Assembly (NCBI GenBank): GCA_964016885.1 | Contig: CAXHJY010001342.1 | Coordinates: forward strand, 133,583-197,582 | Length of the DNA: 64,000 bases | Direction of reading: 5' to 3' | Origin: Eledone cirrhosa | Taxonomy: Eukaryota | Shown here: piece after piece, positions 7,397 to 7,432 of the stretch | How positions within the stretch are numbered: position 1 is the stretch's first letter | How the letters are laid out: the number at the start of each line of letters is the position of its first letter | Translations under genes and position numbers: made by a program | Notes under the pieces: generated by a model | Databases searched by the model: none | What the model saw: the letters and a program-made list of their open reading frames with translations, nothing else | Told to the model about the DNA's origin: nothing

Positions 7397-7432
7397 TATA
7401 TTTCATATATTTCATATATTTCATATATTTCA
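7397..7432 (+). repeat. 4x tandem 9-mer TATATTTCA at PLE 3' terminus
   Basis: Read directly. Present once in the inverted arm at 2667-2679. Confidence 0.9.

Follow-up and report, generated by a model that had tools for sequence, protein, structure and literature searches.

The PLE clade is the closest eukaryotic relative of TERT, and the origin of the telomerase repeat-addition cycle from a retroelement-like RT is an open question. In the portions of the sources examined here, both telomerase (PMC4993307) and DRT10 (PMC12632851) have an internal template of about 1.4 repeats with an alignment and a templating segment, which is reused by 3' realignment. The first of these papers proposed that an internalised template, and then a boundary, was required on the way to telomerase, and the second left possible a mobile ancestor shared with PLEs. 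For the eel LINE UnaL2, template slippage at the start of target-primed reverse transcription, reminiscent of telomerase, was described in the text of PMC1636434 (its ref. 11). Among PLEs, internal RT initiation at two tail-bounding sites was demonstrated in vitro for an element other than those described here, the PAc Poseidon PLE (Frangieh et al. 2024, PMC11167929), in the main text of which neither slippage nor reiteration occurs as a word. The Hydra clade of PLEs was defined by sequence motifs in section 11 of PMC8557442 (Craig et al. 2021), and terminal reiteration is not mentioned for these elements in the examined portion of its text and supplement.

The window, by which we mean the whole 64,000-nt stretch of Eledone cirrhosa DNA that was analysed, contains two elements, A and B, whose features are collected in Table 1. 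The preliminary description had claimed fourfold arrays at 7397 and 36802 that are single-copy in the opposite arms, and both were confirmed. The first array (7397-7432) reads exactly (TATATTTCA)x4 and borders on (TA)n. The inverted arm of element A carries TATATTTCATATA as a single copy on the minus strand at 2667-2679 and extends about 160 nt past it to a second (TA)n junction at 2506. The second array (36802-36837) is (TATTTTCTA)x4, and the other arm of element B has one copy at 35978-35990; a partial fifth unit, TATT, follows at 36838-36841, and then (TC)57, not (TA)n. The window held only five non-simple arrays (unit of 6-14 nt, at least three copies), and two of these were at the orthologous T1 site, which far exceeds coincidence. 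It had further been claimed that the reiteration was repeated independently. The two insertions are indeed separate, but their origins are not, because A and B belong to sister families with RTs that are 88-93% identical.

Table 1. Features of elements A and B within the window
Position	Strand	Feature
2409..2505		(TA)n target array, left side
2506..4437	-	Inverted 5'-truncated arm of element A: last 400 nt of the ORF, whole 3' UTR, T1 site, tail, T2 at 2506
2506..2666	-	Tail between T1 and T2, ~160 nt
2630..2663	-	Predicted RNA hairpin (GCUC...GAGC); start lies 3 nt beyond the priming site in the 3' direction
2667..2679	-	One internal copy of the template, TATA-TTTCA-TATA (templating and alignment segments), then ACTGCTC
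4443..6870	+	ORF for RT and putative C-terminal endonuclease, Hydra-like; frameshift near 5730, stop at 6100-6102
7033..7409	+	Sense-arm pLTR, 99.7% identical to 2667-3043; follows a ~980-nt 3' UTR deletion relative to L101
7397..7432	+	(TATATTTCA)x4 forming the T1 end of element A; template copy and three added units
7433..7595		(TA)n target array, right side
35821..36840		Element of family B: two inverted 3' UTR arms with no ORF, ~98% identity across 217 aligned bases
35941..35974	-	Hairpin in B corresponding to that at T1 in A, on the 3' side of the template
35978..35990	-	Single internal B template TATTTTC-TATATA, then ACTGCTC
36802..36841	+	(TATTTTCTA)x4 and partial fifth unit, B terminus T1
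36841..36955	+	(TC)57 separating the end of B from its (TA)n target; growth probably post-insertion

In element A (2506-7432), a truncated inverted arm adjoins a sense arm that is itself truncated at the 5' end, and the arms are 99.5-99.7% identical. The ~980 nt of 3' UTR missing from the sense arm is present in its own inverted arm, with a short microhomology at the junction (7033-7038). Intact copies of family A occur elsewhere, such as L101, which encodes an 811-aa protein, and four of six larger fetched stretches contained units of about 4.19 kb with a frame of 832-858 codons free of interruptions. The family is arranged as 4.19-kb tandem units with inverted truncated arms and a 160-nt tail. 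The intact 811-aa ORF, read by eye, contained the RT motifs FDINSYY and YRDD together with VIYSC...TYVGST. A Pfam search with the protein gave no RT or GIY-YIG domain match; it had 94 homologues at E<=1e-20, one of them with PF00078. With regard to the motifs of the Hydra clade, we found RVRWR (RWK, with K to R) and HADKT (DKG changed to DKT), as well as the linker motifs CNCRANRTC (CxCX5C), CNLC (CxxC) and CQH (CxH), and no CCHH was seen by eye. Family A therefore shares with Hydra PLEs, as these are described in the examined portion of PMC8557442, a putative C-terminal endonuclease, RW(K/R), DKT and the three linker motifs, and it also shares insertion into (TA)n, the inverted truncated arm and a tail at one end. 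It differs from them in its unit of 4.19 kb (compared with <3 kb), in its tail of about 160 nt (compared with 30-40 nt) and in that a canonical hammerhead was not found in the A unit, either by a simple CUGAnGA...GAAA pattern, which leaves room for degenerate forms, or by an Rfam search, which returned nothing meaningful and no hammerhead. Because of this last difference, family A is called Hydra-like on the basis of its motifs and is not filed as a member of Hydra. The host site of element A is a (TA)n array within an older PLE-like RT/GIY-YIG frame of another type (580-1215 and 1892-2512, minus strand). Degenerate Hydra-like PLE fragments were also observed on the minus strand at 15872-16682 and 16827-17228, and the plus strand carries a separate non-LTR RT in two frames at 60291-62380.

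Copies terminate at one of two sites, T1 (TTTCA then TA) or T2, about 160 nt beyond it (TAATAC then TA), and in many insertions one end is a T1 and the other a T2 on the opposite strand. Seven of the 106 distinct T2 sites in the fetched loci run on into the element. In tandem copies, T2 continues as TATTAACTGCTC into the 5' UTR, and the ATG lies about 70 nt beyond. Internal T1 and T2 sites both lead into AACTGCTC and a GCUC/GAGC stem. The predicted T1 hairpin gave fold z-scores of -2.2 in A and -4.3 in B (copies L101 and L074), and one compensatory pair change between A and B was read by eye; the T2 hairpin fold was insignificant (z 0.03 and -0.66). Reiteration at T2 was rare, with 11 matches, all terminal, of which 10 had a 10-nt unit with one TA, under a pattern that could miss other unit lengths. 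The possibility that TATATAAC is sufficient to mark a priming site was rejected, as family E, a further Hydra-like family, has its terminus there in 0 of the first 100 matches. The fixed T1 and T2 ends would fit two internal RT start sites of the kind reported in the main text of PMC11167929 for the PAc PLE, where the two tail-bounding starts also coincide with the genomic termini and the target is also AT-rich. The PAc start, however, is non-homologous to the target and lies inside the ORF, whereas the family A sites are UA-rich, match (TA)n and lie upstream of the ATG.

Family A ends were counted with exact patterns over the whole 3.0-Gb assembly, and the counts are lower bounds. Single-unit copies numbered 1223 internal and 760 terminal. 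Copies with at least two 9-nt units numbered 313 anywhere (170 forward, 143 reverse), scattered along the chromosomes, and 9 internal copies ended in two 9-nt units. Accordingly, reiteration of at least two 9-nt units was observed at about 304 of 1064 (TA)n-abutting ends (29%) and at 9 of 1232 internal sites (0.7%), with an odds ratio of about 54 and p 5e-99; the figure of 304 is 313 minus 9 and is approximate, since the two patterns use different anchors. The terminal share becomes about 33% if arrays starting with a 7-nt unit are added, and it falls if ends with a degenerate TA flank, missed by the single-unit pattern, are counted; at least one internal array ends in a 7-nt unit and is outside the nine. 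Equal expansion at internal copies, which the preliminary description had set against its own reading, was therefore not what the census returned. In L102 (G000:C1:211715500-211724500) and L065, the terminal and internal T1 sites were both reiterated (4 and 5 units; 4 and 2 units), which suggests self-insertion or a correlated stutter in a single event.

The shape of the arrays was tallied by hand among the matches listed. In the first 100 of 330 family A matches, with gaps of up to 10 allowed, 84 had TATA as the first spacer and 16 had TA, with none longer, and a later unit with three TA occurred in one case. The 41 fetched arrays, most from loci selected for a first TATA, had 59 TATA spacers, 9 TA spacers and 1 without a spacer. 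For B, all 42 loci were tallied, and the first repeated unit had 9 nt in 27 loci (one of them internal) and 11 nt in 8; one locus each had 7 nt and 8 nt, and 5 had another form, of which three extend further into the element and two are internal longer duplications. The unit-length spectra of A and B differed (p 1.5e-5), and the spacer ceiling equalled the template supply, with at most two TA in A (TATA before AC) and at most three in B (TATATA). At least three units were found in 114 family A matches compared with 330 for at least two, the two patterns differing in the last position. Among the first 100 of the 114, 67 had three units, 24 had four and 9 had at least five. The copy number was thus geometric with a chance of about 1/3 of another unit per round (chi-square against p=1/3: p 0.76), and the first two registers (9 or 7 nt) were independent (59/20/16/5, odds ratio 0.92). 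With 1 to at least 6 units so distributed, a fixed fourfold master, the second alternative raised beforehand, was not borne out either. These results qualified the original wording. Fourfold reiteration holds at both window sites but is rare genome-wide, where at least about two thirds of ends are single-unit; and the 9-nt unit is the commonest but not the only one, given 7 nt in 16 of 100 first units (A, listed matches) and 11 nt in 8 of the 42 B loci. The statement that each array matches the template of its own family was supported by the family-specific units and spacers.

The timing of array formation was assessed over 200 nt upstream in the first 30 of 313 reiterated and the first 40 of 760 single-unit loci. 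The median nearest-neighbour distance was 0.005 in both classes (p 0.58; 25/29 and 38/40 usable). Where both arms were in view, mismatches between the arms amounted to 27 in 2421 bases for 12 reiterated insertions and 26 in 1724 bases for 7 single-unit ones, and the arms were mismatch-free in 4 of the 12 reiterated insertions. Family B is older than A (median distance 2-3% compared with 0.5%) and has fewer arrays, with 7 of 55 ends and 0 of 45 internal copies reiterated among the first 100 of 1160 matches. The absence of an age effect, together with the poverty of the older B in arrays, indicated that the arrays formed at insertion.

A template that continues TATA-AC was thus copied repeatedly at insertion, with a constant chance of repetition, and we infer from the sequence patterns that the copier was the element RT acting on RNA. 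The arrays were likely made as the RT primed on the internal UAUA, copied 7-11 nt, slipped back and re-primed. The endonuclease would nick (TA)n, and the 3' TATA would pair with the UAUA that lies immediately on the 5' side of the GCUC/GAGC hairpin; this hairpin probably sets the position of the RT. After TGAAA plus TATA (or plus TA) has been copied, the short AU-rich hybrid would melt and the new end would re-pair with the same UAUA, and in about two of three cases the RT would escape to full-length synthesis. The opposite end of the insertion would usually be made likewise from T2, 160 nt downstream, where reiteration is rare. The original proposal of internal UAUA priming on a (TA)n target, with cycles before read-through, is supported by the template-bounded spacer and the terminal enrichment, so far as genomic copies can indicate. 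Several observations weigh against RT priming at UAUA. The required TATA-AC template could be RNA or DNA and could serve any polymerase; the 9-11 or so reiterated internal copies demand a second route, such as self-insertion or a stutter in passing; the phenomenon is family-specific, family C (another Hydra-like family) lacking such arrays in its first 100 matches; the PAc PLE, according to the main text of PMC11167929, initiates at a site non-homologous to its target; and the rate is not simply set by alignment length. A stronger version, in which the PLE RT adds repeats in a truly processive manner, on an internal template that the hairpin anchors and with about 1/3 translocation per round, is a tentative reading that we hold to be rather doubtful. 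If it were true, the element would run a telomerase-like cycle that lacks only the 5' boundary, and a boundary added to the RNA would yield a repeat-synthesising enzyme.

The main rival to RT priming on RNA is realignment and extension on a DNA copy at insertion, either by host Pol theta-type end joining or by a stutter of second-strand synthesis at T1 joining, which would leave the same marks. Pol theta-type end joining yields templated insertions. Under this route one would likewise expect arrays restricted to termini, with a bounded spacer, mixed registers and no dependence on age; the internal TATA-AC that it requires in a DNA template is what a T2-primed cDNA would have, and some reiterated internal copies share an insertion with reiterated ends (L102, L065). 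However, an extra step is needed for about half of the T1 sites to be exact termini at one position, and the T2 ends of the same insertions gave just the 11 reiteration matches. Fixed PLE termini, moreover, follow directly from internal RT initiation as described in the main text of PMC11167929. On balance, we regard synthesis on a DNA copy, whether by a host polymerase or in second-strand synthesis, as unlikely.

Replication slippage after insertion could instead have duplicated the 9-mer beside the unstable (TA)n. The terminal copies adjoin long unstable arrays and the internal ones do not, and interruptions of TA arrays are frequently duplicated in this genome (101 events). In these other TA arrays of the fetched loci, however, the spacer exceeded three TA in 15 of 16 arrays, whereas none of the 100 listed A arrays had a first spacer beyond the template count of two TA; the background duplications have TA on both flanks and are an imperfect control for element ends. 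An age effect was absent, the older B has fewer arrays than the young A (7 of 55 ends listed), the arrays are mixed at random and not pure, and the chance of a next unit is constant with array length. In favour of slippage, one long-spacer duplication (about 11 TA) in the TATAATTCA subfamily looks like DNA-level slippage, and the (TC)n at B ends seemingly grew after insertion. Taken together, slippage as the source of the 9-nt arrays is largely refuted and is very improbable.

Inheritance from master copies already with 2-6 units would find a parallel in the template-fixed (TAA)3-5 of internal family C copies, and the few internal A copies with arrays could transmit them, but with just 9 of 1232 internal copies reiterated, the other arm single-unit in 12 of 12 reiterated insertions with both arms visible, many 9/7 orders and independent registers, we give it scant credence. 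An assembly or base-calling artefact at microsatellite edges, suggested by the long, hard-to-sequence (TA)n runs that the arrays adjoin, is barely credible, since the units track the subfamily template and the family-specific spacer cap, both strands are represented (170 forward, 143 reverse) and arrays are rare at T2 junctions abutting the same runs.

Natural template variants bear on the rate of reiteration. The TATAATTCA subfamily reiterates its own variant unit at 7 of 46 ends and 0 of 52 internal sites (first 100 of 446 matches). Although the ATTCA variant can pair over 5 nt, its reiteration was lower (7/46 compared with about 29%, p 0.06), and the idea that a longer alignment gives more repeats was not borne out by the template variants. 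The variant in the window copy of B, TATTTTC, was reiterated at 5 of 13 ends (4 of 12 if the window copy is set aside), compared with 6 of 54 for the main B template (p 0.03 with the window copy, 0.07 without it). Single-base template changes may shift the reiteration rate, perhaps via a weak rU-dA hybrid.

Compared with the described systems, family A reiteration resembles telomerase realignment and LINE slippage, and it is not a telomerase. An internal template, TATA-TTTCA-TATA, appears from the genomic copies to be copied repeatedly, with arrays reaching at least 6 units. A 5' template boundary is lacking, as every copy reads through, about two thirds of them after any round; there is neither a separate RNA nor extension of chromosome ends, the template being in the element's own pLTR and the insertions scattered. 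Unlike telomerase, family A has mixed registers and internal (TA)n targets, and the repeats are a by-product. Of the telomerase-like cycle claimed in the preliminary description, repeated realignment on an internal template stood, but in the absence of a 5' boundary the process is better described as stuttering at initiation. With UnaL2, family A shares slippage at initiation beside an RNA stem-loop; the UnaL2 template, according to the text of PMC1636434, is a 3'-terminal (UGUAA)n that is pre-repeated in the RNA with the stem-loop upstream. In family A, by contrast, the template is internal, single-copy and terminally redundant, the hairpin is downstream and the RT is of the PLE clade. LINE slippage is already known, and what appears to be new here is the internal single-copy template in a PLE; no report of such reiteration in PLEs was found in the open-access literature searched. 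More than 300 genomic records of apparent repeat addition on an internal single-copy template are available in this one PLE family. Genomic copies suffice to read off both the chance of a further round (about 1/3) and the division between registers (about 80:20), and natural template variants and intact ORFs exist. The records also offer base-level evidence for priming by pairing with the (TA)n target, unlike the sole PLE studied in vitro.

Two further Hydra-like families were observed. Family E (L106-L111, L114, L115) has about 40% RT identity, 468 pattern matches and a long 3' UTR. Family C, represented in the window at 8300-10930 (minus strand) and 7606-7740, has about 43% RT identity and about 3000 pattern matches; a canonical-looking hammerhead core lies near 8430-8480, and the terminus is just 5' of a GCTC...GAGC stem. 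Apart from (TAA)n, the first 100 family C matches contained no comparable arrays. One of its subfamilies has (TAA)3-5 built into the template, and family C was rejected as a third reiterating example because (TAA)3-5 is already present in internal copies. A metagenome scan for loci of relatives found none.

The preliminary description had also suggested that reiteration could feed microsatellite growth. Extra TC at B ends gave 123 matches genome-wide, and among the first 100 of 1160 matches (TC)n was present at 13 of 55 B ends, about a quarter, and at 0 of 45 internal copies. In 8 of the 13 TC loci, those with the T2 end located, the far end abuts (TA), in one case a short TA run, and not (GA)n, which indicated that TC was added and not targeted. 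Junctions of TC with (TA)n outside B carried (TC)n of at least three units in a comparable share (16 of 63, with 2 B-end matches excluded). TC-bearing B ends leaned older (median 0.028 compared with 0.021, p 0.009; 29/32 and 23/27 usable), in a comparison that is weak because another anchor had been used to choose 20 of the TC loci and two outliers were present. From the equal share at non-B junctions and the older TC ends, it is moderately probable that the (TC)n at B ends arose after insertion by a genome-wide process, and synthesis of (TC)n by the RT is disfavoured on the same grounds. The suggested feeding of microsatellite growth was accordingly unsupported, and TA units added during priming would leave no visible trace. 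The internal TC-TATATA sites of B showed no TC gain. The B insertions, about a quarter of whose ends gained 1 to >50 TC units, thereby act as markers by which the origin of compound (TC)n(TA)n microsatellites can be dated.
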